Shown: in pieces, positions 23,379-44,488 of the stretch
Layout of the letters: every line of letters begins with the position of its first letter
Numbering within the stretch: the first letter of the stretch is position 1
Assembly (NCBI GenBank): GCA_031459715.1
Contig: JAVKIA010000019.1
Coordinates: 1 to 45,499, forward strand
Direction: 5' to 3'
Source of the DNA: Candidatus Humicultor tengchongensis
GTDB taxonomy: Bacteria; Sysuimicrobiota; Sysuimicrobiia; Sysuimicrobiales; Humicultoraceae
DNA length: 45,499 nt
The notes under the pieces: model-generated
The model's database searches: none
Seen by the model: only the letters and a program-made list of their open reading frames with translations
What the model was told of the DNA's origin: nothing
Program-made: the position numbers and the translations under genes

Positions 23379-24001
23379 TCCGCCAGCCAGCGGACCTCCT
23401 CCCCGCCCCCCGGCCGCACCGCACCGCCCGCCCCCAGGCTCTCCACAGCGCCGCCGCCCGGGCCGCCGCGCTGCAGCACCGCCCGCACGTAGCCCACCAG
23501 GCCCCCGCTGGCCAGCAGCCGCTGCATGAATTCGGGCACGGGCGTGGCGGGGTAGGTCTCGTCTCTGGTCAGGTTGACGATGCGCCCCCGCTGCAGGTCG
23601 CAGAGCAGCTCGTCCCCGTCCCGCACCCGGTCGCGGGCCTTGGGCGACTCCAGCAGGGGCAACCCGATGTTGAAGGCGTTGCGGTAGAAGATGCGGGCAA
23701 AGGAGCGGGCCACGATTGCGCCCACCCCCAGCGCCCGGATGGCTATGGGGGCGTGCTCGCGGCTACTGCCCTGGCCGAAGTTCTCGCCGGCCACCAGGAT
23801 GTCGCCGGGACGGATGCGCTCCCGTAGCGTGGGATCCAGGTCCTCGAAGACGTACCGCGCCAGCTCCCGGGGATCGCTGGTCACCAGGTAGCGGGCCGGT
23901 ATGAGCACGTCGGTGTCGATGTGGTCGCCCAGGGTGTGGGCCCGTCCGCGCACCTGCAGGGAGCCGCCGGCACCGGCGTCGTCTCTCCCGGCCCCGCTCA
24001 T
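23357..24001 (-). CDS. leuD: 3-isopropylmalate dehydratase small subunit
   Basis: It is the C-terminal 214 aa of the 562-aa track ORF: MSGAG...LGDHIDTDVLIPARYL...GENFGQGSSREHAP. The ATG overlaps the leuC TGA (ATGA). Confidence 0.9.
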   Translation of the reverse strand: MSGAGRDDAGAGGSLQVRGRAHTLGDHIDTDVLIPARYLVTSDPRELARYVFEDLDPTLRERIRPGDILVAGENFGQGSSREHAPIAIRALGVGAIVARSFARIFYRNAFNIGLPLLESPKARDRVRDGDELLCDLQRGRIVNLTRDETYPATPVPEFMQRLLASGGLVGYVRAVLQRGGPGGGAVESLGAGGAVRPGGGEEVRWLAECIQEIF

Positions 24002-25278: not shown

Positions 25279-25287
25279 CGCCGGACC

Positions 25288-26463
25288 TCAGGAGCGCACG
25301 CCGCCAGCGGCGCTGTGCACCTCCCTGGCCAGCGCCACCAACTCCTCCACGGTCACCCGCTTGCGCCGGTCGGCCAGTGCCTTGAAGGCGGCGAAGGCCC
25401 GCTCCAGCGCCTCCTCCGGCAGGTGCACCCCCTGCTGGGCCAGGACGTGAGCGAAGGCGTGCCGGCCGGAGTGCTTGCCCATCACCAGCCTGGTGGCCGG
25501 CACCCCCACGTCCTCGGGCCGCATGATCTCGTAGGTCAGAGGGTTGACGATCACCCCGTGCTGGTGGATGCCGGCCTCGTGGGCGAAGGCATTGGCACCC
25601 ACGATGGCCTTGTTGGGCGGTACGGCGACCCCGGTGATCGCCTCCAGCGTGCGGCTGGCTCCGTAGATTCCCTGCGTCCGGACGCCGACCTCCACCCCGA
25701 AGACGTCGCGGCGCACCACCAGCGCCATGACCACCTCCTCCAGGGCGGCGTTGCCGGCGCGTTCCCCGATTCCGTTGACGGTGCACTCCACCTGCCGGGC
25801 GCCGGCCTGCACCGCCGCCAGGGAGTTGGCCACGGCCAGCCCCAGGTCGTCGTGGCAGTGGACGCTTACCGTCACCCCATCGATCCCGGGAACCTCCGCC
25901 CGCACCCGGCGCACCAGGGCGGCGAACTGGTCGGGCGTGGCATACCCCACGGTGTCGGGGATGTTGATGGTCGTGGCCCCTGCAGCCACGGCGGCGGCGA
26001 AGACCCGGATGAGGAAGTCCGGATCGGACCGGCTGGCGTCTTCCGCGGAGAACTCCACCTCGGGAGCATAGCGGCGGGCGCGGCGGACCGCCGCTGCCGC
26101 ATCGGCCACCACCTCGTGGGGGGTCTTGCGCAGCTTGCTGCGCATGTGCACCTCAGAGGTGGCGATGAAGGTGTGGATGCGTGGCCGCTTAGCCCCCCGC
26201 AGCGCCTCCGCCGCGGCATCGATGTCCTCGGGGGCGGCGCGGGCCAGGGCGGCGATCACCGGGCCGCGCACCGCCCGGGCCACGGCGGCGACGGCCGCGC
26301 CGTCGCCCGGGGAGCTGGCGGGGAAGCCGGCCTCGATGACGTCCACCTGCAGCTCCGCCAGCGCCCGGGCCATGGCCACCTTCTCCTCAAGGGTCATGGA
26401 GAAGCCGGGCGACTGCTCTCCATCGCGCAGCGTGGTATCGAAGATGGCGACGCGGTCGGCCAC
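25288..26463 (-). CDS. leuA: 2-isopropylmalate synthase, short form (catalytic TIM-barrel plus subdomains, no C-terminal LeuA-dimer regulatory domain)
   Basis: 391 aa. [35 protein letters not shown], and HxH (HEAGIHQHG). GTG start. The operon position argues for LeuA rather than NifV or CimA. Confidence 0.75.
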
Positions 26464-26468
26464 GGTGG

Positions 26469-27596
26469 CTACCTCCCCGCGGGGGCGCGCGCAGATGCCG
26501 CCGCACCCGGGGAAGGGGCGGCGGCAGGCTCGCCCGATGCTGAAGCCACAGCGGCGGCGGCCCGTTCGCCGGGACCCGGAGACGGTGCAGCGCCGGGGAC
26601 CTCTACCCGGCGCAGCCAGGGCATCATGGCCCGCAGGCGGCGGCCCACCTCCTCAATGGGGTGGCGTGCCTCCTCCGCCCGGCGGGCCTCCAGGACCGGG
26701 CGCCCGGCCTGGTTCTCCAGGATCCACTCCCGGGCGAAGGTGCCGTCCTGCACCTCGCGCAGCAGACGGCGCATCTCCTGCCGCGTGGCCTCCGTGATGA
26801 TCCGCCGCCCGCGGGTCAGGTCCCCGTACTCGGCGGTGTTACTCACCGAGTAGCGCATCCAGGCCAGCCCCCCCTCGTAGAGCAGGTCCACGATCAGCTT
26901 CAGTTCGTTGAGGCACTCGAAGTAGGCGATCTCCGGCTGGTAGCCCGCCTCCACCAGGGTGTCGAAGCCCGCCTTGATCAGCTCGGTCACCCCGCCGCAG
27001 AGGACAGCCTGTTCGCCGAAGAGGTCGCTCTCCACCTCCTCGCGGAAGGTGGTCTCGATGACACCGGCCCTGGTGCAGCCGATGCCGCGGGCGTAGGCCA
27101 GGGCCAGCGCCTGCGCGCTCCCGGTGGCGTCCTGGTGCACGGCCAGCAGCGCGGGGACGCTTCCCCCTTCCGCAAACATCCGCCGCAGGAGGTGACCGGG
27201 TGCCTTGGGGGCCACCATGAAAACGTCCACGTCGGGCGGGGGGACTACCTGGTGAAAGTGGACGGCAAACCCGTGGGAGAACCCCAGGGCCTGACCGCCG
27301 CGCAGGCGGGGAGCAATCTCCTCGCGGAACACCTGCCCCTGGCGCTCGTCGGGGATGAGGACCTGCACCAGGTCCGCCTCCGCCACTGCCTCGGACACCG
27401 TGCGCACGCGGAACCCGTCGGCCTCCGCCCGGGCCCAGGAGCGGCTGCCGCGGAAGAGGGCCACCGTCACCTGCACGCCGTTGTCGCGCAGGTTCTGCGC
27501 CTGGGCGTGCCCCTGGCTGCCGTACCCCACCACCGCCACCCGCCGCCCCTCCAGGGGTGCCAGGCTGGCGGCGTCGTCGTAGTAGATCCTGGCCAT
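26469..27596 (-). CDS. ilvC: Ketol-acid reductoisomerase (class I) with a ~45-aa Ala/Pro-rich C-terminal tail
   Basis: 375 aa. [21 protein letters not shown], and ...[11 protein letters not shown]... Confidence 0.9.
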
Positions 27597-27654
27597 AGGC
27601 CTCTCCTCCTTAAACCGGGTTAACGTGATCTGCGCCTCCCGGGCGGCCCGGCTC

Positions 27655-28185
27655 CTACGTGGTCTGCGACCCCCGGGCCAGGGCCACCCGCCCCGTGCGC
27701 ACCATCTCCCGGATGCCGTGCCTGCGCAGCAGCGCCTGCAGGGCGTCGATCTTGTCCGGCTTGCCGCTGACTTCCACCACCACAGTGTGTTCGCCCACGT
27801 CCACCACCCGGGCGCGGAAGATCTGGGCCACGTGCAGTACCTCTTGGCGCGTGCCCGGGGTGACGCTGACCTTGATCAGGGCCAGCTCCCGCTCCACCGT
27901 GTCGCAGCCGGTGAGGTCGTGGACGCGGCGCACCTCCAGGATCTTGTTCAGGTTCTTCACCACCTGCTCCGCCTGCTCGTCTCCCTCCAGGACCACCAGC
28001 ATGCGGGAGATCCGCCGGTCGTCGGTCACCCCTACGGAGAGGCTGTGGATGTTGTAGCCGCGGCGGCGGATCAGCCCGGCAATCTTGGCCAGCACGCCGG
28101 GGCTGTTCTCCACCAGCAGCGAAATGCTGCGGACCGTAGTCGGAGGCTGGCCGTTGGGCTGCCGCCGGATGCGGGCGCCATCCAT
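27655..28185 (-). CDS. ilvN: Acetolactate synthase small (regulatory) subunit
   Basis: It is the C-terminal 176 aa of the 387-aa track ORF. It has an ACT domain ([32 protein letters not shown]). The ATG overlaps the ilvB TGA (ATGA). Confidence 0.9.
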
Positions 28186-29978
28186 CACTCCAGAATCATC
28201 TCCTTCACCGACTGCCCGGAGGGGATCATCGGGAAGCAGTTCTCCTGGGGGTCCACCAGGACGTCCAGCACCACAGGCACATCCGACACCTGCAGCGCCC
28301 AGGCCACCGCGTCCTCCACCTCCTCGGGGCGGCGCACGGTGCGCCCCGCGGCGCCGAAGACCTGGGCCAGCCGGGCGAAGTCGGGGTTCTGCAGCATGAC
28401 GTGGGAGTAGCGCTGGCGGTAGAAGAGCTGCTGCCACTGCCGCACCATGCCCAGGGAGCCGTTGTTGATGATGACCACCTTCACCGGGAGGCGCCACTCC
28501 ACCGCCGTGATCAGGTCCTGCAGCGTCATCTGGAACCCACCGTCGCCCACCAGCGCCACCACCGTGCGCTGCGGGCAGGCCAGCTGCGCCCCTATGGCTG
28601 CAGGGAAGCCGAACCCCATGGCCCCCAGGCCGCCGGAGCTGATGAAGGTGCGGGGCTCGCGGCAGCGGTAGAACTGCGCCGCCCACATCTGGTGCTGGCC
28701 CACATCCGTGACCACGATGGCCCTTTCCTGGGTGAGGCGGGCTACGGTCTCGCAGACGAACTGGGGCTTGATCACCTGGTCGCCCTGGCGGTAGCGCAGC
28801 GGGTAGCGCTCTCGCCACTCCTGGATCTGGCGCAGCCAGGGCTCGATCTGCGGCGGAGCCGTGATGCGCTCCACCAGGGCCGCCAGCACCAGCTTCGCGT
28901 CGCCCACGATGGGGATGTGCGCCGGCTTGTTCTTACCGATCTCCGCCGGGTCGATGTCGATGTGGATGAAGCGGGCGCGGGGGGCGAAGTCCGCCAGGCG
29001 CCCGGTCACGCGGTCGTCGAAGCGCACCCCCACCGCCAGGATCAGGTCGGCCTCGTTAATGGCGTAGTTGGCATACGCGGTGCCGTGCATCCCCAGCATG
29101 CCCAGACAACGGGGATGGTGCTCGTCGATGGCACCTTTGCCCATCAGGGTCACGGTGACGGGGATCCCCGTGCGCTCCACCAGGCGGGTCAGCTCCGCGG
29201 AGGCCCCCGCGGAGATCACCCCGCCGCCGGCATAGATAATGGGCCGCTCTGCTCCCTGCAGGGCCTCGGCCGCGGCGGCGATCTGGGCGGCGTTGCCCTC
29301 GCGGTGAGGGCGGTAGCGAGCGGTCACGTCTTCCACGGGGCGGGGGACGACCCGGGCCTGGGCCACATCGCGCGGCACGTCCACCAGCACCGGCCCCGGC
29401 CGGCCCGCGGCGGCCACGTAGAAGGCTTCGGCGATGGCCCGGGGCAGGTCGGCGGCATCCCAGACCTGGTAGGCGTGCTTGGTCACCGGCATGGTGATGC
29501 CGATGACGTCGGCCTCCTGGAAGGCGTCCCTCCCGATGACCGCGGTGGGCACCTGGCCGGTGATGGCCACCACCGGCACCGAATCCATGTGGGCGTCGGT
29601 CAGGCCGGTGACCAGGTTGGTGGCTCCCGGCCCGGAGGTGGCCATGCACACCCCCACCCGCCCCGAGGCCCGGGCGTAACCCACTGCTGCGTGGGCGGCC
29701 ACCTGCTCATGGCGAACCAGGACGTGCCGCAGGTCGGCGGCGTCGTAGAGGGCATCATAGATGGGTAACGAGGCGCCGCCGGGTATGCCAAAGATCACCG
29801 CAGCACCGGCCTGACGCAGGGCCTCGACCAGGAGCTCGGCCCCGGACCGGGTGACCTCCCGCCCGGTTGGGGCCAGCTCGCCTCGGGAGCGGCCCAATCG
29901 CGAACGGATTGCTGCCCGCGAGCCAGCCCCGTCTCCTGAGGGTGTGCGCCTGCCTGTGCGGGATGCGGTTACCGTCAT
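28185..29978 (-). CDS. ilvB: Acetolactate synthase large (catalytic) subunit
   Basis: The track ORF is 634 aa. An internal ATG (MTVTAS...) has a GGAGGG SD 6 nt upstream, giving 597 aa. TPP/FAD motifs: GIPGGASLPIYDAL, GDGGFQM. Confidence 0.9.
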   Translation of the reverse strand: MTVTASRTGRRTPSGDGAGSRAAIRSRLGRSRGELAPTGREVTRSGAELLVEALRQAGAAVIFGIPGGASLPIYDALYDAADLRHVLVRHEQVAAHAAVGYARASGRVGVCMATSGPGATNLVTGLTDAHMDSVPVVAITGQVPTAVIGRDAFQEADVIGITMPVTKHAYQVWDAADLPRAIAEAFYVAAAGRPGPVLVDVPRDVAQARVVPRPVEDVTARYRPHREGNAAQIAAAAEALQGAERPIIYAGGGVISAGASAELTRLVERTGIPVTVTLMGKGAIDEHHPRCLGMLGMHGTAYANYAINEADLILAVGVRFDDRVTGRLADFAPRARFIHIDIDPAEIGKNKPAHIPIVGDAKLVLAALVERITAPPQIEPWLRQIQEWRERYPLRYRQGDQVIKPQFVCETVARLTQERAIVVTDVGQHQMWAAQFYRCREPRTFISSGGLGAMGFGFPAAIGAQLACPQRTVVALVGDGGFQMTLQDLITAVEWRLPVKVVIINNGSLGMVRQWQQLFYRQRYSHVMLQNPDFARLAQVFGAAGRTVRRPEEVEDAVAWALQVSDVPVVLDVLVDPQENCFPMIPSGQSVKEMILE

Positions 29979-30370
29979 GCTCTGCCCTCCGGTGAAAACA
30001 AAATGAGCCACCCGTAAGGACGGGCAGCTCCCGTGGTACCACCTTACTTCCGGGGCCCAGAGGGGCGGGGCGGAGATCGCACCGCACATCGCGTGCGGGC
30101 CCGGCCCTGCCCGGAGACCCGGAACTCTTTGCCCGCTATCGGGGGCGAGGACGGCGGAACCTAGTCCCGGGGGACGTCGGTCCCGCGGCTCGGGGACGAG
30201 TTCGTGCGGTCACCGCGGCGGCCAGCTCCCACCTGCCCTGGCTCTCTCCACGCCGCGCGCCGCCTACTGCTTCCCCTCATCGCCGATAAAGCCATAAAGC
30301 CGGCCGGGCCGTCAAGCACGAAAGCCTGAGGCGACAGATTTCACGAGGAACCTCCCCCTCAGGCTTCTGT
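29979..30370 (-). promoter_or_regulatory. Candidate T-box riboswitch leader of the ilv-leu operon (tRNA-Leu, CUC specifier)
   Basis: In the minus-strand RNA, GUAAGG-UGGUACC-ACGGG-AGCUG-CCCGU-CCUUAC forms helix A1, a 7-nt bulge carrying UGGU that could pair the tRNA NCCA end, and helix A2. It resembles the T-box consensus AGGGUGGNACCGCG. A stem-I candidate (AAGCCUGAGG...CCUCAGGCUU) contains GUGA and then CUC-A, the same Leu specifier as the B. subtilis ilv-leu leader. Confidence 0.6.
29995..30030 (-). terminator. Intrinsic terminator of the T-box leader (competes with the antiterminator)
   Basis: The RNA AGCUGCCCGU-CCUU-ACGGGUGGCU forms an ~8-bp stem with an internal mismatch, followed by CAUUUUGUUUU. 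It lies ~25 nt upstream of the ilvB SD. Confidence 0.5.
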
Positions 30371-30524: not shown

Positions 30525-33500
30525 TCAAGCCCTGAATCCCGAAAGTTCGGAATCTGGCGAACCGGCCGCCTCCGCAGCATCCTGTCCGAGGAGGCCGCGG
30601 GGGAGGACCTTTCGGAGGCGACCGGCTGAAAAAGGCCAGGCCTGCAGCAGCTCTGCCGCCCGCCGGCTCCCGGTGTGCGCCAGATGCTCGGCGAGGAGGT
30701 CGCGCAGCTCGTGCAGATCTTTCGCTTCGACCTGCACCACCGACACCGTCTCCTGGTTGCACCGGCCGGCGAACAGGCCGTCCTCGTCCAGGACGTAGGC
30801 CCGGCCCCCGGTCATCCCCGCACCGAAGTTGTAGCCGGCGCGGCCCAGCACCACCACTACCCCTCCGGTCATGTACTCGCACCCGTGGTCGCCCACCCCT
30901 TCCACTACGGCCACCGCGCCGCTGTTGCGCACGGCGAAGCGCTCGCCGGCGCGCCCCGCGGCGAAGAACCGGCCGCCGGTGGCGCCGTAGAGGACCGTGT
31001 TGCCCGCGATCACGTTCTCGTGGGAGGCGCCGGTGAAACCACGCGGCGGGCGGATGGCGATCGTTCCCCCGCTCATCCCCTTCCCCGCATAGTCGTTGAC
31101 CTCGCCCTCCAGCTCCAGGACCATCCCCGGGACGCAGAACGCGCCGAAGCTCTGACCCGCGCTCCCGGTAAACCGGAGCACGACGCGTCCCTCCCCCAGT
31201 CCTCCCTCCCCGTACCGCCTGGCGATGGCTCCGGCCAGGCGTCCGCCCACCGTCCGGTCCATGTTGCTGATGGAGTAGGTCAGGTGCACTGGGATGCCGC
31301 GCTCCAGGGCGGGCCAGGCGTCCATCCAGACGCGGTCGTCCAGGGTGGGGCCCTCGGGCCGCTTGTTGCGCGCCTGCATGCAGCGCCGCGCCGCCTCCGG
31401 CACCCCGGCGGACCCGGCCAGGAGCGCGGAAAGGCCGATACGGCGTCCCAGGACGGACTCGTCCACCGGGGATAGCAGCTCGCTGCGCCCGATGACCTCC
31501 TCCAGGGTGCGGGCGCCCAGCGCCGCCAGGTGACGCCGCACCTCCTCGGCCACCGCAAGCAGGTATGCCTCCACCCGCTCGGGCCGTCCGCTGAACCGGC
31601 CTCGCAGGTCCTCCCGCTGCGTGGCGATGCCGGTGGGGCAGGTGTTGAGGTGGCAGGCGCGGGCCATCACGCAGCCCAGGGCGACCAGCGCCGCGGTGCC
31701 GAAGCCGAACTCGTCTGCGCCCAGCAGGGCAGCCACGACCACGTCCCGCCCCGTTTTCAGCCCCCCGTCCACGCGCAGGCGGACCCGCCCGCGCAGCCCG
31801 CTGGCCACCAGCACCTGCTGGGTCTCCGCCAACCCCAGCTCCCAGGGCAGGCCCACGTGCTTGATGGACTCCAGGGGCGAGGCCCCCGTGCCGCCGTCGT
31901 GTCCGCTGATCTGGATGGTGTCGGCAAAGGCCTTGGCCACCCCCGCGGCGATGGTGCCCACACCGGCTTCCGCCACCAGCTTCACAGCCACGCGGGCCAG
32001 AGGATGGACTCGCTTGAGGTCGTAGATGAGCTGGGCCAGGTCCTCGATGCTGTAGATGTCGTGGTGGGGCGGCGGGGAGATCAGCGTGATCCCCGGCTGC
32101 GCGCGGCGGATGGCGGCGATCTCGGCGCTGACCTTGTGGCCGGGGAGCTGGCCTCCCTCGCCCGGCTTGCTCCCCTGCGCCATCTTGATCTCCAGCTCGT
32201 CGGCCGATACCAGGTAGGCCGCAGTCACCCCGAATCGTGCCGAGGCCACCTGCTTGATCCGGCTGTTGGCGTTGGTGCCGTCGGGCCGGGGGAGGTAGCG
32301 GGAGGGATCCTCGCCCCCCTCGCCGCTGTTGGAGCGGGCCCCCAGGCGGTTGGCGGCGATGGCCAGGGCCTCATGTGCCTCCCGGGAGAGCGCCCCGTGG
32401 GACATCGCTGAGAGGACGAAGCGGCGCACGATGGCGTCGGCAGGCTCCACCTCCTCCAGAGGGACGGGCTCCCGCCGGACAAAGGCCAGCAGGTCGCGCA
32501 GGGCGGTGGGGGGGCGGGAGGCGACCAGGTCGGCGAAGGCGGTGTAGGCCTGGCCGCTGCCCGACTGGGCGGCCTGGTGCAGCCGCTTCACTACATAAGG
32601 GTTGAAGGCGTGGTATTCACCGTCGCGGCGGAAGCGGACCAGCCCCGGGTCCGCCAGCTCTCCATCTCCGGCGAAGGCGCGTGCGTGGCGGGCGGCCGCC
32701 TGGGCGGCCAATTCGTCCAGGGAGACGCCGCCCAGGTGGGCGGGCGTGCCGGGGAAGTAGCGCTCCACCACCTGAGGGTCCAGCCCCACGACCTCGAAGA
32801 CCTGCCCGCCCTGGTACCCGGCGAGGGTGCTGATTCCCATCTTGCTGGCCACCTTGAGCAACCCCTGCTCCAGAGCGCTGAGGTACTGCCGGACCGAGGG
32901 TCGGCGGCCGTTGGCGGAGGGCAGCGCGGCCACGGTCTCCAGGGCCAGGTAGGGGCAGACCGCCTCAACTCCGTAGCCCAGCAGGCAGGCTACCTGGTGG
33001 ACGGTACGCGCTTCACCGCTCTCGACCAGCAGACCCACCCGCATGCGCAGCCCCACCCGGATGAGGTGATGGTGAACGGCGCTGGCGGCCAGGAGCATGG
33101 GGATGGGGATGCGTTTTGGGTCGGCGGCGCGGTCGCTGAGGATGAGCAGACCTGCCCCTTCTGAAACTGCGGATTCCGCCTCGCCGGCCAGACGGACAAG
33201 CGCAGCCTCCAGCGAGTCGCGGTCCGCAGGCCACGTGGCGTCCAGAACCACCGCCGGCCAGGGAGCGTGGGCGCGCACCCAGCCAAGCTGGTCGGGGGTG
33301 AGCACGGGCGAGGGGAAGGCCAGCAGCGCGGCGTGTTCGGGGCCATCCTCCAGCCAGTTGCGCCGCGGGCCCACCCGGACGGCAAGCGACATCACCAGCC
33401 GCTCCCGCAGGGGGTCGATCGGCGGATTGGTCACCTGGGCGAACCGCTGGCGGAAGTAATCGTAGAGGAGCCGGGGCCGTTGAGACAGGGCAGCGGGCGG

Positions 33501-35108
33501 GGTGTCGTCACCCATGGAGAAGACGACCTCCTTGCCCTCGGTGGCCATCGGCAGGAGGAGGTAGGTCACCTCTTCAGCCGTATACCCGAACACCTGCTGG
33601 CGGCGGCGCAGCCTGGCCCCGGCTGCGCTGTCTTGGGGTGGCGCTCCTGCATCAGGAGCGAGCGCCGCCTGCTCCGGCCCCTTCGCCGGCACCGGGGGTT
33701 CCCAGTTCCCGCCCGGGACGCGGATGATCCGGCGCGTCCACTCCCGGTAGGACCTGGCCGCGGCCACCTGTGCCTTTATCTCCGCGTCCGCCAGCATCTG
33801 GCCGGTGACAGTGTCCACCGCCAGGACCTGGCCCGGCCCCAACCGCCCCTTGCGCACCACCTGATCTGCGGGAAACGGTAGGACCCCAGCCTCTGACGCC
33901 AGCACTACCAGCCCCTCTGCCGTCACGGCGTAGCGGGCGGGTCGCAGGCCGTTACGGTCGAGGGCCGCGGCCACGATGCGCCCGTCGGAGCAGGCCAGCG
34001 CCGCGGGTCCGTCCCACGGCTCGGTCAGGCAGGCGTGGTACTCGTAGAAGGCGCGCACCGCATCGGGCAGGTCCGGGAGCTCCTCCCACGCCTGCGGGAC
34101 CAGCATCAGGAGGGCATGGAGCAGAGAGCGGCCCGAGGCCACCAGCAGCTCCAGGACGCTGTCCAGGTGGGCGCTGTCGCTTCCGCCCTCCTGCAGCAGC
34201 GGGACCAGGTCCCTCCACCGGTCGGCCCAGAGGGACTCCCGCAGCATCGCTTCCCGCGCGCGGGTCCAGAGGAGGTTGCCCTGCAGGGTGTTGATCTCCC
34301 CGTTGTGCGCCAGGTAGCGAAAGGGCTGGGCCAGCCACCAGCTGGGGGAGGTGTTGGTGCTGTACCGCTGGTGGAAGACCGCCAGCCGGGTGACGTAGGC
34401 GGGGTCGGTCAGGTCGCCATAGAAGCGCCCGAGTTGGGGGGAGACGAAGAGGCCTTTGTAGACCACGGTCCGGTGCGAGAAAGAAGCGATGTAGGCTCCA
34501 AGACCGGATTCCCGCAGGCGTCGCTCTGCCGTCCTCCGGGCGAGGTAGAGGCTGCGGGTGAAGGCAGGGTCATCATCCCCCGCCCGCCGCACGACCACGA
34601 GCTGTCGGATCACCGGCTGCGTCACGCGGGCGAAGGCTCCAAGTGCGTCCGGGTCTACGGGAACGGGCCGCCAGCCCAGGACGCGCAACCCCTGAGAACA
34701 CGCGGCCTGCTCAATCAGCGCCGCAGCCTCGTCTGCGGCAGCAGATGGCAGGAACACCATGGCCAGGGCCAGGTCCTCATCGCCCACGTCCCCCAGCGGG
34801 AGGTCGCGGCGCAGCAGGTCATAGGGAAGCTGGGTGAGCACCCCCGCTCCGTCCCCCGACTTCCCGTCGGCGGAGACGGCCCCACGGTGGCTCATCCGGG
34901 AGACGGCGGAGAGCGCCGCGGCCAGCACAGCGTGGCTGGGGAAGCGGTGGGCAACGAACCCTACGCCGCAGGCGTCGTGTTCCGCGATCGGGCTGACCAC
35001 TGGACCTCCCTTAGACTTCCTCAGGGCAAGCCGTCCGTCACAGGCGACTTTCAGGACAGCGCCCGCTCCAGGATCCCCTGCTATGCACGAAGCCCGAGGG
35101 CGAGGCAC
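30525..35108 (-). CDS. gltB: Glutamate synthase large subunit (GltB/GltS type)
   Basis: 1527 aa. Motifs: HDACGVGF, FSHRTVVYKG, GEGG (the FMN/4Fe-4S region) and a C-terminal GxxGxxG beta-helix. The ORF start is GTG. An alternative GTG at about 35000 has an AAGGGAGGT SD and leaves 10 aa before the catalytic Cys. Confidence 0.9.
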   Translation of the reverse strand: MPRPRASCIAGDPGAGAVLKVACDGRLALRKSKGGPVVSPIAEHDACGVGFVAHRFPSHAVLAAALSAVSRMSHRGAVSADGKSGDGAGVLTQLPYDLLRRDLPLGDVGDEDLALAMVFLPSAAADEAAALIEQAACSQGLRVLGWRPVPVDPDALGAFARVTQPVIRQLVVVRRAGDDDPAFTRSLYLARRTAERRLRESGLGAYIASFSHRTVVYKGLFVSPQLGRFYGDLTDPAYVTRLAVFHQRYSTNTSPSWWLAQPFRYLAHNGEINTLQGNLLWTRAREAMLRESLWADRWRDLVPLLQEGGSDSAHLDSVLELLVASGRSLLHALLMLVPQAWEELPDLPDAVRAFYEYHACLTEPWDGPAALACSDGRIVAAALDRNGLRPARYAVTAEGLVVLASEAGVLPFPADQVVRKGRLGPGQVLAVDTVTGQMLADAEIKAQVAAARSYREWTRRIIRVPGGNWEPPVPAKGPEQAALAPDAGAPPQDSAAGARLRRRQQVFGYTAEEVTYLLLPMATEGKEVVFSMGDDTPPAALSQRPRLLYDYFRQRFAQVTNPPIDPLRERLVMSLAVRVGPRRNWLEDGPEHAALLAFPSPVLTPDQLGWVRAHAPWPAVVLDATWPADRDSLEAALVRLAGEAESAVSEGAGLLILSDRAADPKRIPIPMLLAASAVHHHLIRVGLRMRVGLLVESGEARTVHQVACLLGYGVEAVCPYLALETVAALPSANGRRPSVRQYLSALEQGLLKVASKMGISTLAGYQGGQVFEVVGLDPQVVERYFPGTPAHLGGVSLDELAAQAAARHARAFAGDGELADPGLVRFRRDGEYHAFNPYVVKRLHQAAQSGSGQAYTAFADLVASRPPTALRDLLAFVRREPVPLEEVEPADAIVRRFVLSAMSHGALSREAHEALAIAANRLGARSNSGEGGEDPSRYLPRPDGTNANSRIKQVASARFGVTAAYLVSADELEIKMAQGSKPGEGGQLPGHKVSAEIAAIRRAQPGITLISPPPHHDIYSIEDLAQLIYDLKRVHPLARVAVKLVAEAGVGTIAAGVAKAFADTIQISGHDGGTGASPLESIKHVGLPWELGLAETQQVLVASGLRGRVRLRVDGGLKTGRDVVVAALLGADEFGFGTAALVALGCVMARACHLNTCPTGIATQREDLRGRFSGRPERVEAYLLAVAEEVRRHLAALGARTLEEVIGRSELLSPVDESVLGRRIGLSALLAGSAGVPEAARRCMQARNKRPEGPTLDDRVWMDAWPALERGIPVHLTYSISNMDRTVGGRLAGAIARRYGEGGLGEGRVVLRFTGSAGQSFGAFCVPGMVLELEGEVNDYAGKGMSGGTIAIRPPRGFTGASHENVIAGNTVLYGATGGRFFAAGRAGERFAVRNSGAVAVVEGVGDHGCEYMTGGVVVVLGRAGYNFGAGMTGGRAYVLDEDGLFAGRCNQETVSVVQVEAKDLHELRDLLAEHLAHTGSRRAAELLQAWPFSAGRLRKVLPRGLLGQDAAEAAGSPDSELSGFRA

Positions 35109-35564: not shown

Positions 35565-35867
35565 ATGGGGACCGAGACCACCGGCGTCAGGCTTGCCCGG
35601 CTGGAAGGCGCCTACGAGCAGATTGACAGGCGCCTGGGCACCATCGAGGGGCGCCTGGCCGTGCTGGAAGGCAAGGTGGACGCCGGGTTCGCCCGACTCG
35701 ACGCCAAGATCGGCGGGAAGATCGACGCGCTCGCCTCCGAGCTGCGGGAGGCGATCGTGCGTACCAACGCCCGGATGGATGCCCTGGGCGCCCGTCTGAA
35801 CACCGCGATGTTTGGCATCGTGGCCGCCGTCCTGGTTCCCATCCTCCTGCGCCTTTTCTGGCCCTGA
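35565..35867 (+). CDS. Small coiled-coil protein with a C-terminal transmembrane helix (XhlA/haemolysin-XhlA-like)
   Basis: 100 aa. Heptad-like LARLEGAYEQIDRRLGTIEGRLAVLEGKVDAGFARLDAKIGGKIDALASELREAI followed by MFGIVAAVLVPILLRLFW. G/C-rich codon third positions are consistent with genuine coding. No holin or lysin lies nearby. Confidence 0.5.
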   Translation: MGTETTGVRLARLEGAYEQIDRRLGTIEGRLAVLEGKVDAGFARLDAKIGGKIDALASELREAIVRTNARMDALGARLNTAMFGIVAAVLVPILLRLFWP

Positions 35868-37169: not shown

Positions 37170-37302
37170 CAGGACCTCCTCCACCGCTCTGTCTCCACTC
37201 TCCGTACGTTGCCCGCCCGGACGGCAGAAGTCAACCGGATCCCTCTTGACAACCGCCGCGGAGGTGCTACTTTTTTGGGATAAATAGAGTGCAGTTGGCC
37301 TG

Positions 37303-37351
37303 AGGCCGCGACGCCTCTCAAGCGAAGGGGTCGCGGCCTTTCGCTTTTCGG
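37303..37351 (+). terminator. Stem-loop plus U-tract in the amtB leader (candidate attenuator/terminator)
   Basis: A perfect 10-bp stem, AGGCCGCGAC / GUCGCGGCCU, encloses an 18-nt loop. UUCGCUUUUCGG follows. It sits ~100 nt upstream of the amtB ATG, in a divergent intergenic region. Confidence 0.45.
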
Positions 37352-37450: not shown

Positions 37451-38893
37451 ATGGCCTTGCCGGGAAAGCCAGAGCGCGCGGGACGTATGTGGCTGGCCGC
37501 AGCCCTCGGCCTGCTGGTCGCAGGCTCCGCCGCAGCACCCGCCCTGGCCGCCGATCCGTCCGGGAGCGCCACCCTGGCCCGTCAGCCCGAGGCCGCCGTC
37601 AACTTCACCTGGACGCTGGTGGCCGCCTTCCTGGTCTTCTTCATGCAGGCGGGGTTCGCCCTGCTGGGTGCAGGGCTGATCCGCTCCAAGAACACGGTCA
37701 ACTACCTGACCAAGAGCTTCATGGACTTCTGCATGGCCTCGCTCTCCTTCTGGGCCTTCGGCTTCGCCCTGATGTTCGGCGGCTCCAGGCTGGCCCCAGG
37801 CCTGGAGGCCGGAGGCACCCTGGCGGGCTTCTCCGGATTCTTCCTGGCCCGCGGGAGCTACGACGTCTCCGCTGCGATGCTGTGGCTGTTCCAGATGGTC
37901 TTCGCCGCCACGGCGGCGACCATCGTCGCCGGCGCGGTGGCCGAGCGCATGAAGATCACTGCTTACCTGGCCTACAGCTTCCTCATCGGCGCGCTTATCT
38001 ACCCCATCTACGGGCACTGGGTCTGGGGCGGGGGCTGGCTGGCAACCCTGCCCTGGGGCGCGGGGGCGCGGGACTTCGCTGGCTCCGGCGTCGTGCACGC
38101 CGTGGGCGGGCTGCTGGCCCTGGTCGGTGCGGCCATGACCGGTCCGCGCCTGGGGAAATTCAACCGTGACGGCACGGCCAATGCCATCCCCGGCCACAAC
38201 ATGGTCTACGCCGTGACCGGGACGTTTGTCCTTTTCTTCGGCTGGTTCGGCTTCAACGCCGGCAGCACCCTGGCGGCCACCGACCTGCGCACCGCGGTGA
38301 TTGCCACAAACACCTTCCTCGCCGGAACCGCCGGAGCCGTAACCGCCCTCTACTACGCCCTGGTCCGCAGCGGTCGGGCGGATGTGGTCATGGCCTGCAA
38401 CGGCGCGCTGGCCGGCCTGGTGGGGATCACCGCTCCCTGCGCCTACGTGGCGCCGTGGGCGGCGGTGGTGATCGGCGCCGTCGGCGCCCTGATCATGGTG
38501 GGTGTGAGCGCCTTCGTCGAGCGGGTCCTCAAGGTGGACGACCCGGTGGGTGCCATCGCCGTGCACGCGGGCGGGGGGCTGTGGGGCCTGCTCGCGGTGG
38601 GAATTTTTGCCGACGGCACCTACGGAGGCGTCCGCGGGCTGATTACCGGAGCCGGAGGTCAGATGTTGGCGCAACTGGTGAGCATCGGCGCGGTCCTGGC
38701 CTGGAGCCTGGGGACCGGGTTCCTGATGTTCTGGTTCCTCAAGGCGACCATGGGCCTTCGGGCCTCGCCGGAGGAGGAGCTGTCGGGGCTGGACGTCCCC
38801 GAGCACGGGATCGAGTGCTACCCGGAACTGCAACTGGTCCCGGTTATGGGCGCCAGTGAGCCCCCGGCGATGCGACGGGAGGTGGGAGCATGA
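37451..38893 (+). CDS. amtB: Ammonium transporter (Amt family) with signal peptide
   Basis: 480 aa. Signal peptide (AAAPALAADPS), FMQAGFALL, and the twin-His/Phe-gate region. AGGAGGG SD 7 nt upstream. Confidence 0.9.
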   Translation: MALPGKPERAGRMWLAAALGLLVAGSAAAPALAADPSGSATLARQPEAAVNFTWTLVAAFLVFFMQAGFALLGAGLIRSKNTVNYLTKSFMDFCMASLSFWAFGFALMFGGSRLAPGLEAGGTLAGFSGFFLARGSYDVSAAMLWLFQMVFAATAATIVAGAVAERMKITAYLAYSFLIGALIYPIYGHWVWGGGWLATLPWGAGARDFAGSGVVHAVGGLLALVGAAMTGPRLGKFNRDGTANAIPGHNMVYAVTGTFVLFFGWFGFNAGSTLAATDLRTAVIATNTFLAGTAGAVTALYYALVRSGRADVVMACNGALAGLVGITAPCAYVAPWAAVVIGAVGALIMVGVSAFVERVLKVDDPVGAIAVHAGGGLWGLLAVGIFADGTYGGVRGLITGAGGQMLAQLVSIGAVLAWSLGTGFLMFWFLKATMGLRASPEEELSGLDVPEHGIECYPELQLVPVMGASEPPAMRREVGA

Positions 38894-40092
38894 TCTCCGA
38901 GGTGACAGCCGCTGTCCTCTTCTTCCTCCTGCTGGCCGCGGCCTGGCTGGTCCTGCCCACGCTCTTCGTACACCGGGAGCGGGTGGAGGGAGCGGCACGG
39001 CGGGAGCGACAGAGGCAGGTGGCGGCCGAACGCGTGCACCTGGCCGGCCCCCTGCCGGGAGGTCCGCCCAGGATGCGCTCCCGGGGGGCGCTTGCCGGCA
39101 GGCTGGTGCGCAACTCCCAGGACGGGACCTCTCCAAACGGTACGACTCCCCGCTACTTCTTCGTCGCCGACGGGGGAGCCCACGGCCCGGGTGAACTGCG
39201 CGTCCCCATCTACCACCAGGTCAACCCCCGACCGGACCTGCTGCGCAAGGAGATCTACGTGGCAGAGGTGGCGGGGATGCGGCTGGAGGCCGGCAACCTG
39301 CCGCTTCTGGCAGAGATGCTATCGGTGGAGCTCGCCCGGCTGCGCCGCGGCGGCGCGCTGCCGCGCTACTGGTTCACGCTGCCCGACGGCGGCAGCGTGC
39401 CGGTATTCGCCCGGGGGGAGGGGTTTGAGGCCCGCATACCCGGGGGCCCGCACCTGGTGGAGCAGACGGTGGGCCGGCTGCGTCGCCGCCTGGCGGAGTA
39501 CCTGGCGCCGTTCGGAGAGGCCGCCCGGGGCGGTGGGCCCGAGGTCCTGGTGCTTGGAGCCGACCTGCGCTGCGCCCGGCCGGTTGCGGCCTTCGCCGCT
39601 GGGGAACTCTGGCTGCCGGTCCTGCGTATGGACGGGGCGCTGGTGGTGGAGGAGGCGGTGTATGAGCGCCAGCCCGCGGAGGAGGACGCCGCCGCGCTGC
39701 TCCCCCTGCGCCGCCGCGTCGCCGACCGCCTGGTGGCCCGGGGTCGTGTGCGCTCCCCCGCCGAAGTTCGGATCGAAGAGGTGGAACGGCACGCAGCACA
39801 GCGGCTGCGCCTGCTCCTGGGCCCGCCGGTGGGCCACCTGCCCTGCTTCGGCGCCGAGGGCGGGACGCTGGAGCAGGTTCTGCTCCCGGTCTTCCGCTTC
39901 CAGGGCGAGGTGCTCTGCCCCGGCCGGGCGGACTTCTCCGTCCTCTACGTCGGTCGGGACGAGGAGGAGTTACGCGCTCAGGTGGACGGCTCCTCATGGC
40001 GGGACGGCCTGGGCGCGGCCGCAGACCTTCTCCCGCCCGCCGCAGCAGGGCAGGCCAGGGACAAGACCAGCGCGCTGGGGAGGGTGATCTGA
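38890..40092 (+). CDS. Hypothetical membrane-anchored protein (one N-terminal TM helix; ~375-aa soluble part with internal repeats) in the position normally held by glnK
   Basis: 400 aa. The ATG overlaps the amtB TGA (ATGA) and has a strong GGAGGTGGGAG SD. Repeated segments: PRYFFVADGGAHGPGELRVPIY / PRYWFTLPDGGSVPVFARGEGFEARIPG / LPVLRMDGALVVEE / LPVFRFQGEVLCPG. I recognise no known domain. Confidence 0.7.
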   Translation: MISEVTAAVLFFLLLAAAWLVLPTLFVHRERVEGAARRERQRQVAAERVHLAGPLPGGPPRMRSRGALAGRLVRNSQDGTSPNGTTPRYFFVADGGAHGPGELRVPIYHQVNPRPDLLRKEIYVAEVAGMRLEAGNLPLLAEMLSVELARLRRGGALPRYWFTLPDGGSVPVFARGEGFEARIPGGPHLVEQTVGRLRRRLAEYLAPFGEAARGGGPEVLVLGADLRCARPVAAFAAGELWLPVLRMDGALVVEEAVYERQPAEEDAAALLPLRRRVADRLVARGRVRSPAEVRIEEVERHAAQRLRLLLGPPVGHLPCFGAEGGTLEQVLLPVFRFQGEVLCPGRADFSVLYVGRDEEELRAQVDGSSWRDGLGAAADLLPPAAAGQARDKTSALGRVI

Positions 40093-40095
40093 GCC

Positions 40096-41496
40096 ATGGC
40101 AGTGGGATGGATCGTGGCTGCGGGCGTGGTGCTGCTGGGCGCCGCCTTCGCCGTCTGGGCGCTGCGGTACACGAAGGTCGGCCCCAACGAGGTGCTGATC
40201 ATCTCCGGCCGGCGGCGCACGGTGGCGGACCCCAGGGGAGGGAAGCGCACTGTGGGCTACCGCCTGGTGCACGGCGGGGGCACCTTCGTCTGGCCAATCA
40301 AAGAGAAGGTGCAGCGCATGTCCCTGGAGCTGATGACCCTGGAGGTGCGCACCCCCGAGGTATACACGGCCATGGCCGTCCCCGTCACCGTGGACGGGGT
40401 GGCGCAGATCAAGGTGAAGGGCGACGACGCCTCCATCGCCCTGGCCGCGGAACAGTTCCTCTCCCGGTCGCGGGAGGAGGTGATGCGCACCCTGCTGCAG
40501 ACCCTGGAAGGGCACATGCGCGCCATCCTGGGGACCATGGTGGTAGAGGAGATCTACCGCGGGCGGCAGGAGCTGGCCCGCCGCGTGCGCGAGGCCGCCG
40601 CGGAAGACCTGGGGAAGATGGGGATGGAGATCATCTCCCTGACCATCCGCAACGTCACCGACAGTCAGGGCTACCTGGAGGCGCTGGCCCGCCCCCGCAT
40701 CGCCCAGGTGAAGCGCGACGCGGTGAAGGGCGAGGCGGAGGCGGAGTGGGAGGCGCAGCAGGCCCGCTTTGCCGCCGACACCCGCATCGAGGCGGCGCGG
40801 CGGGACATGGAGATCAGCAAGGCAGGCTTCGAGGCGGAGGTGAAGCAGAAGCGGGCCGAGGCCGACCTGAGCTACGACCTGCAGCGGTTCAAGATGGCCC
40901 AGCGGGTGAAGGCGGAGGAAGTGCAGGTGGGCATTGTGGAGAAGCAGAAGGCCGTGGAGCTGCAGGCGCAGGAGATCCTCCGCCGGGAGAAAGAGCTGGT
41001 GGCCACCGTGCTCAAGCCCGCCGAGGTCGAGCGGCAGAAGGTGGAACTTCTGGCGGAGGCCGAGCACTACCGCCTCAAGGCGGAGGGGCAGGGGCGGGCC
41101 GAGGAGATCCGCGCCCGGGGGACGGCCGAGGCCGCGGTGATCAAGGAGAAGGGCCTGGCGGAGGCCGAGGCCATGCTGCGTAAGGCCGACTCCTGGGGGC
41201 GGTACAACGAGGCGGCCATCAGCGAGCTATTCATCAACGTCCTGCCCCAGCTGGCCCGCGCGGTGAGCGAGCCGCTGGCCAGGACCGAGAAGATCGTGGT
41301 GGTGGGCAGCGACGGGAAGGGCACCGGTGCCTCCCGGATCACCGGCGACGTGGCCCAGGTGGTGGCGCAGCTACCGGCCGTGATCGAGGCGCTGACCGGG
41401 ATCAAGCTGCACAAGCTCCTGGAGCGGCTCCCCGCCCTGGCGGCGGCCGGCCGCAGCGAGCCCGGGGACCGCGAGGCGCCTGCCGGGGAGGTGTAG
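40096..41496 (+). CDS. floT: Flotillin-like SPFH/band-7 protein (FloT/YuaG type)
   Basis: 466 aa. N-terminal membrane hairpin, an SPFH domain (KVGPNEVLIISGRR...), a long EA-rich coiled coil (AEAEWEAQQARFAADTRIEAARRDMEI...), and a C-terminal flotillin tail. It starts 3 nt after the X stop. Confidence 0.85.
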   Translation: MAVGWIVAAGVVLLGAAFAVWALRYTKVGPNEVLIISGRRRTVADPRGGKRTVGYRLVHGGGTFVWPIKEKVQRMSLELMTLEVRTPEVYTAMAVPVTVDGVAQIKVKGDDASIALAAEQFLSRSREEVMRTLLQTLEGHMRAILGTMVVEEIYRGRQELARRVREAAAEDLGKMGMEIISLTIRNVTDSQGYLEALARPRIAQVKRDAVKGEAEAEWEAQQARFAADTRIEAARRDMEISKAGFEAEVKQKRAEADLSYDLQRFKMAQRVKAEEVQVGIVEKQKAVELQAQEILRREKELVATVLKPAEVERQKVELLAEAEHYRLKAEGQGRAEEIRARGTAEAAVIKEKGLAEAEAMLRKADSWGRYNEAAISELFINVLPQLARAVSEPLARTEKIVVVGSDGKGTGASRITGDVAQVVAQLPAVIEALTGIKLHKLLERLPALAAAGRSEPGDREAPAGEV

Positions 41497-41499
41497 GGA

Positions 41500-42975
41500 A
41501 TGGCCAAGGCCAGTTTGCGTCCTGCGACGCTCAAACCGACCACAGCCGCGGAGGTGCTGGAGCTGTGCCAGGGGACCGTGGAGGTGCGGGAGCGGCAGCG
41601 GGTGGAGGTGGTCGACCTGCGCTTCGTGGACCTGCTGGGCGCCTGGCAGCACTTCTCCATCCCGGCGGGTGAGCTGAGCGAGGAGCTGTTTGCGGAAGGC
41701 ATCGGGTTCGACGGGTCCAGCATCCGCGGCTTCCAGCACATCCACGAGAGCGACATGCTCCTCCTCCCCGACCCGACCACCGCGCGCATCGACCCCCTGG
41801 GCGATCCTCCCACCCTGGCCATCATCTGCAACGTGGTCGACCCCATCACCCGAGAACCCTACACCCGGGACGCCCGGTTCGTGGCCCAGAAGGCGGAGCG
41901 CTACCTGCGGGCCTCAGGTATCGCCGAAGTCAGCTACTGGGGGCCGGAGGTGGAGTTCTTCGTCTTCGACGACGTGCGCTTCGACCAGAACCAGCACTCC
42001 GGCTACTACTACCTGGATTCCATGGAGGGCGCCTGGAACACCGGGCGGGAGGAGAAGCCCAACCTGGGCTACAAGCCGCGGTACAAGGAGGGCTACTTTC
42101 CCGTCCCGCCCACCGACTCCCTGCAGCCCCTGCGCTCGCGCATGGTCCGCCGCCTGCTGGAGGCCGGCCTGGAGGTGGAGGCGCACCACCACGAGGTGGG
42201 CAGCGGCGGGCAGTGCGAGATCGACCTGCGCTTTACCTCCCTCACCGAGATGGGCGACCGCGTCCTCTGGTACAAGTACGTCGTGCGCAACGTGGCCCGG
42301 GCCGCGGGCAAGGTCGTCACCTTCATGCCCAAGCCGCTGTTTGGAGACAACGGCTCGGGGATGCACACCCACCAGAGCCTGTGGGCGGCGGGCGCCAACC
42401 TGTTCTTCGACCCCCGCGGCTACGCCCAGCTCAGCGAGCTGGCCATGTACTACATCGGGGGGCTGATCAGGCATACCCCGGCCCTGCTGGCCTTCTGCGC
42501 CCCCACCACCAACTCGTACCGCCGCCTGGTACCCGGCTACGAGGCGCCGGTGAACCTGGCCTACGCCCAGCGCAACCGCAGCGCCTGCATCCGCATCCCC
42601 GTCTACTCCGCCAGCCCGGGGGCCAAGCGCATCGAGTACCGCTGCCCCGACCCCACCTGCAACCCCTACCTGGCCTTTGCCGCCATGCTCATGGCCGGCC
42701 TGGACGGCATCGAGCAGCGGATAGACCCCGGGGCGCCCATGGACGTGGACCTGTACGAACTGGCCAGCGGCAACGGCGGCGCGGTCCCGCAGGTGCCTGC
42801 CTCACTCCCCGAGGTGCTGGATGCCCTGGAGGCCGACCACGACTTCCTCCTGCGCGGCGAGGTCTTCACCGAAGACCTCATCCACGCCTGGATCGCCTAC
42901 AAGCGCCACAAGGAGGTGGACGCGGTGCGGCTGCGGCCCCACCCGTGGGAGTTCGCCCTGTACTTTGACGCCTGA
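41500..42975 (+). CDS. glnA: Glutamine synthetase type I
   Basis: 491 aa. GS signatures: FDGSSIRGF, KPLFGDNGSGMHTHQSLW, NSYRRLVPGYEAP. GGAGG SD 8 nt upstream. It starts 3 nt after the floT stop. Confidence 0.95.
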   Translation: MAKASLRPATLKPTTAAEVLELCQGTVEVRERQRVEVVDLRFVDLLGAWQHFSIPAGELSEELFAEGIGFDGSSIRGFQHIHESDMLLLPDPTTARIDPLGDPPTLAIICNVVDPITREPYTRDARFVAQKAERYLRASGIAEVSYWGPEVEFFVFDDVRFDQNQHSGYYYLDSMEGAWNTGREEKPNLGYKPRYKEGYFPVPPTDSLQPLRSRMVRRLLEAGLEVEAHHHEVGSGGQCEIDLRFTSLTEMGDRVLWYKYVVRNVARAAGKVVTFMPKPLFGDNGSGMHTHQSLWAAGANLFFDPRGYAQLSELAMYYIGGLIRHTPALLAFCAPTTNSYRRLVPGYEAPVNLAYAQRNRSACIRIPVYSASPGAKRIEYRCPDPTCNPYLAFAAMLMAGLDGIEQRIDPGAPMDVDLYELASGNGGAVPQVPASLPEVLDALEADHDFLLRGEVFTEDLIHAWIAYKRHKEVDAVRLRPHPWEFALYFDA

Positions 42976-43769: not shown

Positions 43770-44488
43770 GTGCGCCGGTTCCTGATCGACACCGACACCG
43801 CCTCCGACGACGCCGTGGCACTACTCATGGCCCACCGCTGGCCGGACGTGCAGGTGGACGCGGTCACCATCGTCGCCGGCAACGTGCCTGTGGAGATGGG
43901 CGCGCGCAACGCCGGCTACACCATCGAGCTGTGCGGCCAGGAGACACCGGTGTATGTGGGATGCGACCGGCCGCTGCTACGCGAGCCCCGCTGGGCCTTC
44001 TTCTTCCACGGCCCCGACGGCATGGGTGGGATGAACTACCCGCCGCCGAGTTCAACATCTGGGTGGACCCCGAGGCCGCCCGCATTGTGCTTCACTCGGG
44101 GATGCCCATCCTCATGGTGGGCTGGGAGCACTGCCGGGGCCCGGCGGCGTTCGACGAAGCCGGGATGGAAGAGGTCCGCCGCATCGGCACGCCCTACGCC
44201 CGGTTCGTTCTGGACTGCAACCGCACGGCCATCCGGGTGGCTATGGAGTGGCTGGGGGAGCCGGGACTGACGCTGCCGGATCCGGTAACCATGAGCATCG
44301 CCCTGGACCCGGCGGTATGCACTTCACGCGGCCGGCACTTCGTGGAGGTGGAGACCGCCAGCGACCTCACCCGCGGCATGACCGTGGTGGATCGCCACGG
44401 GGTGCTGAACCGGGAGCCCAACGTCGAGGTGTGCTGGGCCATCGACGTACCCCGCTGGAAGGAGACGCTGCTCCGCACGCTGCGCTGA
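43770..44488 (+). pseudogene. Inosine-uridine-preferring nucleoside hydrolase family gene, disrupted
   Basis: The N-terminal part (frame 0) reads [19 protein letters not shown]...FHGPDGMGG, which carries the DTDxxxDD signature. The C-terminal part is in another frame ([16 protein letters not shown]...). A -1 frameshift falls in a CCGCCGCC run near 44040. About 75 aa appear missing between the GxDG and AAEFNI blocks compared with RihA. Confidence 0.6.

Follow-up and report, generated by a model that had tools for sequence, protein, structure and literature searches.

A repeat protein encoded between amtB and a flotillin gene in at least three bacterial phyla is a probable component of the ammonium-uptake machinery

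Few functional gene pairs of prokaryotes are as conserved and as well studied as that of AmtB and GlnK. PII proteins have a length of about 112 amino acids and a ferredoxin-like fold with a T-loop, and the sensor-type Amts carry fused C-terminal cytoplasmic domains such as histidine kinase or other signalling domains. Bacterial flotillins are, to our knowledge, still without well-defined physiological clients. SPFH proteins act with operon-encoded partners that recruit clients, as in the YdjG/H-YdjI-PspA (PMC8581546) and FloA-NfeD (PMC11222466) systems, and NfeD proteins are encoded as their operon partners, for example in YuaF-FloT, PH1510/PH1511 and FloA-NfeD (PMC2636767, PMC4208085, PMC11222466). 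Here we describe a protein, termed protein X or X, that is encoded between the ammonium transporter gene amtB and a flotillin gene in a 45,499-nucleotide stretch of DNA from Candidatus Humicultor tengchongensis (contig JAVKIA010000019.1; hereafter the window) and that probably belongs, hitherto unrecognised, to the ammonium-uptake machinery. The association of X with an amtB/flotillin/glnA cassette is well supported; its mechanism and function we infer from the genomic context.

The X gene (38890..40092, plus strand; 400 amino acids plus stop) bears the locus tag QN152_08540 in an Armatimonadota metagenome-assembled genome (MAG), where it is annotated as encoding a hypothetical protein. It is preceded by amtB (37451..38893, plus strand; ammonium transporter of 480 amino acids; Pfam PF00909, E=1.5e-121) and followed by a gene for a flotillin/SPFH protein (40096..41496, plus strand; 466 amino acids; Pfam Band_7, E=1.2e-28, and Flot, E=3e-6) and by glnA for a type I glutamine synthetase (GS; 41500..42975, plus strand; 491 amino acids; Pfam Gln-synt_C and Gln-synt_N). 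The amtB stop and the X start overlap by 4 nucleotides (ATGA), an overlap of the same length being found in three related loci (L001-L003), and a Shine-Dalgarno-like site, GGGAGGTG, is located 6-13 nucleotides 5' of the X start within the 3' end of amtB. The flotillin ATG begins 4 nucleotides past the X stop and the glnA ATG 4 nucleotides past the flotillin stop, so that each pair is separated by a gap of 3 nucleotides. Such translational coupling suggests a fixed ratio in the synthesis of X, flotillin and GS. The GC content of X at the three codon positions (0.82/0.52/0.87) follows the same pattern as in amtB, flotillin and glnA, the two long alternative-frame open reading frames (ORFs) overlapping X show a non-coding pattern, and dN/dS of X against three orthologues amounts to 0.31-0.45, as compared to 0.16-0.21 for amtB from the same contigs. 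The codon-position pattern, the dN/dS values and the tight coupling to its neighbours establish that X is a genuine gene under purifying selection.

The neighbourhood of X was compared across 13 independent loci, picked by match rank or contig size and not by gene context; genes were called with Pfam matches and the calls checked by tblastn with the window proteins and E. coli GlnK. Traced relative to amtB, X is linked to it in 12 of the 13 loci; in 11 of these it comes after amtB, either immediately or with glnK in between, and in one it is fused to it. X lies directly 5' of a flotillin gene in 11 of the 13, and glnA comes next in seven of the eight contigs that extend far enough. The usual order is amtB-(glnK)-X-flotillin-glnA and occurs in at least three bacterial phyla. 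The window arrangement, amtB-X-flotillin-glnA, recurs in L006, and L001, L002 and L003 show amtB-X-flotillin up to the contig ends. In L009/L010, L011 and L012 the order is amtB-glnK-X-flotillin-glnA and X overlaps the stop codon of glnK; in L013 it is amtB-X::PDC-flotillin-glnK, so that a genuine glnK is present alongside X throughout L009-L013. The Thermoflexus locus (L014) reads glnA-nhaP-amtB-X-flotillin-purL, L004 reads amtB-X-glnA and has genes for a GAF kinase/regulator and for GOGAT close by, and L007/L008 contain X-flotillin-glnA without amtB. The contigs of the latter (L007:9330-14077 and L008:2470-7217, both from Armatimonadota MAGs) keep a transmembrane (TM) form of X; the upstream place of amtB is taken there by a CHAT/peptidase S8 pair together with a small gene of the PF13801 (Metal_resist) family. 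As to L013, its glnK sits after the flotillin gene and not before X.

The fused form comes from L005. In the protein concerned, P0037 (748 amino acids), an entire Amt domain (residues 14-416) is joined by a Pro/Ala-rich linker to an X domain. Since P0029, a protein from another sample that is 80% identical to P0037, has the same Amt::X architecture, the fusion is genuine and no assembly artefact. The original prediction, made from the DNA of the window only, had placed X immediately after amtB and on these grounds proposed it as a candidate novel transporter-associated factor. The ATGA overlap and the 11 loci in which X follows amtB bear out the placement, and these loci together with the Amt::X fusion strongly reinforce the proposal. 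That X is tied to flotillin and glnA as tightly as to amtB had not been part of it.

The members of the cassette differ in their rates of divergence. Pairwise identity across loci is 21-34% for X, 42-90% for AmtB, 59-78% for flotillin and 58-79% for the cassette GS, and tblastn in the other loci detects flotillin orthologues of 55-98% identity. X, so much less conserved than its partners, is the fast-evolving member of a conserved gene set, as is typical of an adaptor or regulator and not of a core enzyme. The cassette GS copies (window 41500-42975, L004:11112-12647, L007:12617-14077, L009:11224-12657, L011:10358-11794 and L012:3528-4961) keep their 58-79% identity across phyla and GC contents of 49-73%, as against 36-45% identity to the second GS that some of these contigs encode. 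They thus form a clade of their own, which suggests either that this GS isoform is dedicated to the cassette or that the cassette as a whole has spread laterally.

Neither Pfam nor NCBIfam contains a match for X, searches across 61 and 50 of its relatives matched only fused domains, and a sequence-profile search of the PDB with the X family returned none below E=0.2. A word-indexed protein search yielded three close relatives; an exhaustive hidden Markov model search of 1.84 billion representatives yielded 92 members at E<=1e-3, 58 at E<=1e-10 and 10 at E<=1e-30, all of these counts referring to cluster representatives. They come from Armatimonadota, Chloroflexota including Thermoflexus hugenholtzii (QWK11919.1 / WP_303900110.1) and Thermodesulfobacteriota, and those that carry a name are all called 'hypothetical protein', except for the PDC fusion, whose name refers to its sensor domain. 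Three forms can be distinguished, a soluble one, which is the majority, one anchored by an N-terminal TM helix and one fused to Amt; most members are soluble proteins of 310-350 amino acids equivalent to residues ~70-380 of X. In Thermodesulfobacteriota X is C-terminally fused to a PDC/dCache-type ligand-binding module without a predicted TM segment (L013:1914-3311, P0023; also MFQ6079125.1 and MFQ5841029.1). Conserved positions of the family are mainly P, G, L, Y and W, the polar ones being N75, E121, E133, N136, D225 and D357, and the sole invariant residue is P243. The family alignment contains no conserved Cys/His/Ser/Lys set and no nucleotide-binding motif, and this pattern of conservation points to binding and not catalysis. 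As judged by Pfam, NCBIfam, PDB and BFVD, the X family is undescribed, having neither a domain model nor a solved relative nor an annotation, and its genes stand in a previously unreported form of the classical amtB-glnK-glnA neighbourhood.

The repeats of X emerge at the level of profiles. Self-alignment of the single sequence by the Smith-Waterman method was not significant (score 46, reached by 15 of 100 shuffles). When four module profiles cut from the 61-sequence family alignment (residues 85-153, 154-212, 214-286 and 311-380) were compared by hhalign, however, modules 2 and 4 (P=1e-10), 2 and 3 (P=3e-10), 3 and 4 (P=1e-7) and 1 and 2 (P=3e-7), four of the six pairs, were found to be related, modules 1 and 3 gave P=2e-4, the pair of modules 1 and 4 was not significant, and the reversed-profile controls gave P>=0.019 in 12 of 12 cases. 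AlphaFold2 (AF2), run on only four close homologues, gave an unusable model (pLDDT 46.6), and the model obtained with 61 sequences (pLDDT 86.7, pTM 0.76) was used instead. It shows a long N-terminal helix, a disordered linker (residues 53-63) and then four consecutive ββββα units, so that X consists of four homologous repeats of roughly 60-75 amino acids each, with a predicted α+β fold. Module 1 (residues 85-153; 39142..39348, plus strand) comprises strands 89-96, 99-111, 121-127 and 130-134 and helix 137-151; conservation within the family is highest in a patch of this module (E121, Y123, G129, E133, N136, L137, L140). Module 2 (residues 154-212; 39349..39525, plus strand) comprises strands 158-163, 169-175, 178-182 and 188-191 and helix 194-208, and module 3 (residues 214-286; 39529..39747, plus strand), in which the invariant P243 is located, strands 218-222, 233-237, 240-247 and 250-253 and helix 266-283. 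A short connector (strand 294-296, helix 300-310) leads in the model to module 4 (residues 311-380; 39820..40029, plus strand) with strands 315-323, 326-337, 340-344 and 352-355 and helix 358-378.

Much of what had been read from the sequence at the outset is thereby confirmed and in part corrected. The five peptides quoted in the original prediction map to residues 5-27, 87-108, 158-185, 239-255 and 331-355 of X, and hhalign superposes its repeat segments ('RVPIY', 'SVPVF', 'LWLPVL', 'LLPVF'). Of the three or four internal repeats proposed there are four, at exactly the positions given, yet the repeating unit spans roughly 60-75 and not 30-40 residues. The suggestion of a β-propeller or a tandem of β-sandwiches did not hold, as the model consists of modules of four strands plus a helix and no propeller or sandwich structure matched significantly. 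The statement that X has no known domain stands after the sequence searches and likewise after Foldseek comparison of the AF2 model with PDB and BFVD, which gave no match at E<0.09 and no confident match to a characterised family. Both the PDB and the BFVD comparison returned sliding-clamp proteins that align along almost all of X, but at very low probability (3p16_C, probability 0.02, TM score 0.09; a phage DnaN in BFVD, probability 0.04, TM score 0.09). The repeated β-α-β-β-β unit of the sliding clamp has its elements in the same cyclic order as the ββββα unit of X. A DNA sliding-clamp-like fold (DnaN/PCNA) was rejected on the basis of the poor superposition (TM score of about 0.09), and the likeness is probably coincidental.

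The N-terminal TM helix likewise proved to be well founded. This anchor (residues 5-27; 38902..38970, plus strand), modelled as a helix with pLDDT >90, has a mean Kyte-Doolittle hydropathy of 2.62 over residues 9-27, and the motif E..W.G..AF..L..LW.VLP.R, followed by a basic cluster, is common to TM-bearing members of distant lineages, the shared features being an acidic residue ahead of the helix, the conserved W19 and L22-P23 and then an Arg/His-rich cluster. According to the AF2 model and the motif alignment it continues into a basic juxtamembrane helix (residues 28-52, HRERVEGAARRERQRQ...; 38971..39045, plus strand), after which the model has a low-confidence linker (residues 53-66). An N-terminal TM helix is present in about 18 of 96 family sequences. 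From the basic juxtamembrane cluster and the positive-inside rule, an N-out/C-in topology with a cytoplasmic repeat domain would be expected. The C-terminus of Amt proteins is cytoplasmic, as is established for AmtB, and the Amt::X fusion thus agrees with this orientation of the TM-anchored forms. Each of the three forms of X could act at the inner membrane face.

What might X do at this site? We propose that X is a non-enzymatic cytoplasmic protein, in this organism tethered to the membrane by its N-terminal TM helix, and a dedicated component of the translationally coupled cassette amtB-(glnK)-X-flotillin-glnA. Most likely it would dock at the cytoplasmic face of the AmtB trimer and, as an adaptor or regulator, couple AmtB to the scaffold formed by the flotillin of the next gene, and possibly also to the cassette GS, such that ammonium entry and capture by GS would be organised at one membrane site. 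We give this proposal as a whole, in which X links AmtB, flotillin and possibly GS, an even chance of being correct. Several points weigh against it. Contacts of X with AmtB, flotillin or GS we infer from gene context. The L007/L008 loci have no amtB adjacent to X-flotillin-glnA and L004 has no flotillin gene in amtB-X-glnA, so that neither amtB nor flotillin is obligatory in cis. In loci with glnK, the translational coupling of X is to glnK and not to amtB, and GlnK could be the true partner of X. Finally, the term adaptor draws on negative evidence, namely the lack of a catalytic signature, since the fold is without an informative structural neighbour in PDB and BFVD.

The relation to GlnK leads to a first alternative, in which X would be a signal-responsive regulator that gates AmtB or modulates GS according to nitrogen status, either together with GlnK, as its receptor or co-regulator, or in its place in operons that lack glnK, such as that of the window. 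Like GlnK, X is encoded just downstream of amtB among nitrogen-assimilation genes including that for GS, is expected at the cytoplasmic face of the Amt trimer and shares the gene position of PII, adjacent to and presumably co-transcribed with amtB. It shares neither the sequence nor the fold, since X consists of 300-400 amino acids with four ββββα repeats whereas PII is a 112-residue trimeric ferredoxin-like protein, and X (at E<=1) and its 61 relatives (at E<=0.01) did not match PF00543; moreover, X is often membrane-anchored or Amt-fused and occurs beside true glnK. No PII gene was found in the 45-kb window or in L001-L006, where X takes the usual position of glnK, and in L009-L012 X overlaps the glnK stop. 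A regulatory role would also fit with the PDC/Cache-type ligand-binding domain fused to X in Thermodesulfobacteriota, and small accessory proteins are reported to modulate AmtB via GlnK in Methanosarcina (PMC10714827). However, at least four lineages encode X and GlnK within one operon, so that X is no mere substitute, X itself is without a conserved ligand-binding motif, and the absence of PII from this MAG refers to the 45-kb window. As a general rule, the replacement of GlnK by X is rejected, both being present in L009-L013. A signal-responsive regulator seems to us unlikely, if still worth serious consideration.

Scarcely different is our estimate for a second alternative, which we likewise consider unlikely: X could mainly be a partner of flotillin that functions in the manner of NfeD, and the association with AmtB and GS would then reflect no more than expression of this flotillin together with nitrogen-assimilation genes. 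In 11 of the 13 loci the X gene lies directly upstream of the SPFH/flotillin gene, where NfeD is usually encoded, and it is translationally coupled to it; no NfeD gene adjoins any flotillin gene of the examined loci, and X-flotillin-glnA persists without amtB in L007/L008. The TM-anchored form furthermore resembles NfeD in combining a membrane anchor with a β-rich soluble part, and its role may similarly be client recruitment or co-assembly. On the other hand, neither X nor its relatives match the Pfam model of NfeD (PF01957), the soluble part is made of four α+β repeats of ββββα type and not of a five-stranded OB barrel, and most members are soluble without a TM segment. X also tracks amtB and glnA, accompanies them without flotillin in L004 and is fused to Amt and not to an SPFH protein.

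That X is an enzyme of new fold, modifying for instance GS, GlnK or a lipid, we regard as highly improbable. A new fold could have activity, and conservation is high at some acidic and amide positions (E121, E133, N136, D225), but there is no conserved nucleophile, metal-ligand set or nucleotide-binding motif, the sole invariant residue is a proline, sequence divergence is high, and small internally repeated modules are more typical of binding proteins. The idea of a chance open frame with compositional repeats, to which DNA of 70% GC rich in spurious long ORFs, several of them overlapping X, and the non-significant single-sequence repeat test might lend some colour, can practically be dismissed in view of the codon-position GC pattern, the purifying selection, homologues down to ~21% identity in other phyla at GC contents of 49 to 73%, the confident AF2 model and the profile-level repeats with their reversed controls.

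Upstream of the cassette, about 100 nucleotides before the amtB start, the window contains a tentative operon leader (37246..37349, plus strand) that is conserved in L001 and L002 (compared over L001:4397-4654 and L002:1-211). It contains a -35-like TTGACA (37246-37251; conserved as CTTGACA), a TGnTAnnnT-like element and, behind these, a GC-rich hairpin, GGCCGCGAC...GTCGCGGCC (37304-37338), with a T-rich run after it (37339-37349); the stem is kept in a relative whose X is only 50% identical. Rfam gave no match in the whole window or, with permissive settings, in the amtB leader, and no call was made by a consensus scanner. Judged by its sequence, the hairpin may be a candidate transcription attenuator or regulatory leader for the cassette.

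Some features of the wider window deserve mention. Just upstream of hom and amtB lie gltB, encoding the large subunit of GOGAT (30525-35108, minus strand), and a block of branched-chain amino-acid genes, ilvB-ilvC-leuA-like-leuC-leuB (22245-30089, minus strand), which together with the cassette form a wider nitrogen-assimilation neighbourhood; GOGAT is near the cassette in L004 too. Between gltB and hom, a 100-amino-acid ORF (35565-35867, plus strand) has a coding-type codon GC pattern and no Pfam match, and a gene of equal length and position is present in a related contig (L001:2795-3097). Beyond glnA an inosine-uridine nucleoside hydrolase gene is broken into two frames (43770-44488, plus strand), with profile positions 2-92 at 43770-44055 and 165-296 at 44060-44488 and about 70 residues missing between them; it is a pseudogene or an error of MAG assembly.

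How does this cassette relate to what has been described? In the part of the literature available to us, we found no paper that functionally links flotillin or SPFH proteins with amtB, GlnK or GS, amtB never co-occurs there with SPFH, and the few papers in which flotillin terms stand beside GlnK, or beside ammonium-transporter and GS terms, mention them incidentally; the literature on Armatimonadota nitrogen genes contained nothing relevant. The YdjG/YdjH-YdjI-PspA system of Bacillus subtilis offers a parallel, as there an SPFH protein is hard-wired to one client by operon-encoded membrane partners (PMC8581546), yet the proteins are unrelated and the client is an envelope-stress ESCRT-III homologue and not ammonium assimilation, so that the parallel is one of analogy only. 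The fusion proteins P0037 and P0029 recall the sensor-type Amts in carrying the X domain on the Amt C-terminus via a flexible linker. They differ from them in that X has no kinase, GGDEF or recognisable output domain and is a separate polypeptide in most genomes.

The X-flotillin-GS cassette in at least three phyla and the Amt fusion point to an unrecognised layer in the organisation or control of ammonium uptake. The X family deserves a domain definition, and flotillin biology gains a concrete candidate client system. Among the carriers of X is a named species with a near-complete genome, Thermoflexus hugenholtzii (WP_303900110.1), which we take to be cultured and which as a cultured carrier would make experiments feasible. 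It is possible, and we suggest it tentatively, that AmtB, X, flotillin and the cassette GS, joined by GlnK in the loci that have it, assemble into a physical ammonium-assimilation microdomain, the flotillin scaffold being recruited through X. If this is true, that scaffold would confine Amt with GS, so that incoming NH3/NH4+ would be captured before leaking back; among bacterial flotillins it would be the first to be hard-wired to a defined metabolic pathway, and X would be the first non-PII protein partner of Amt channels.

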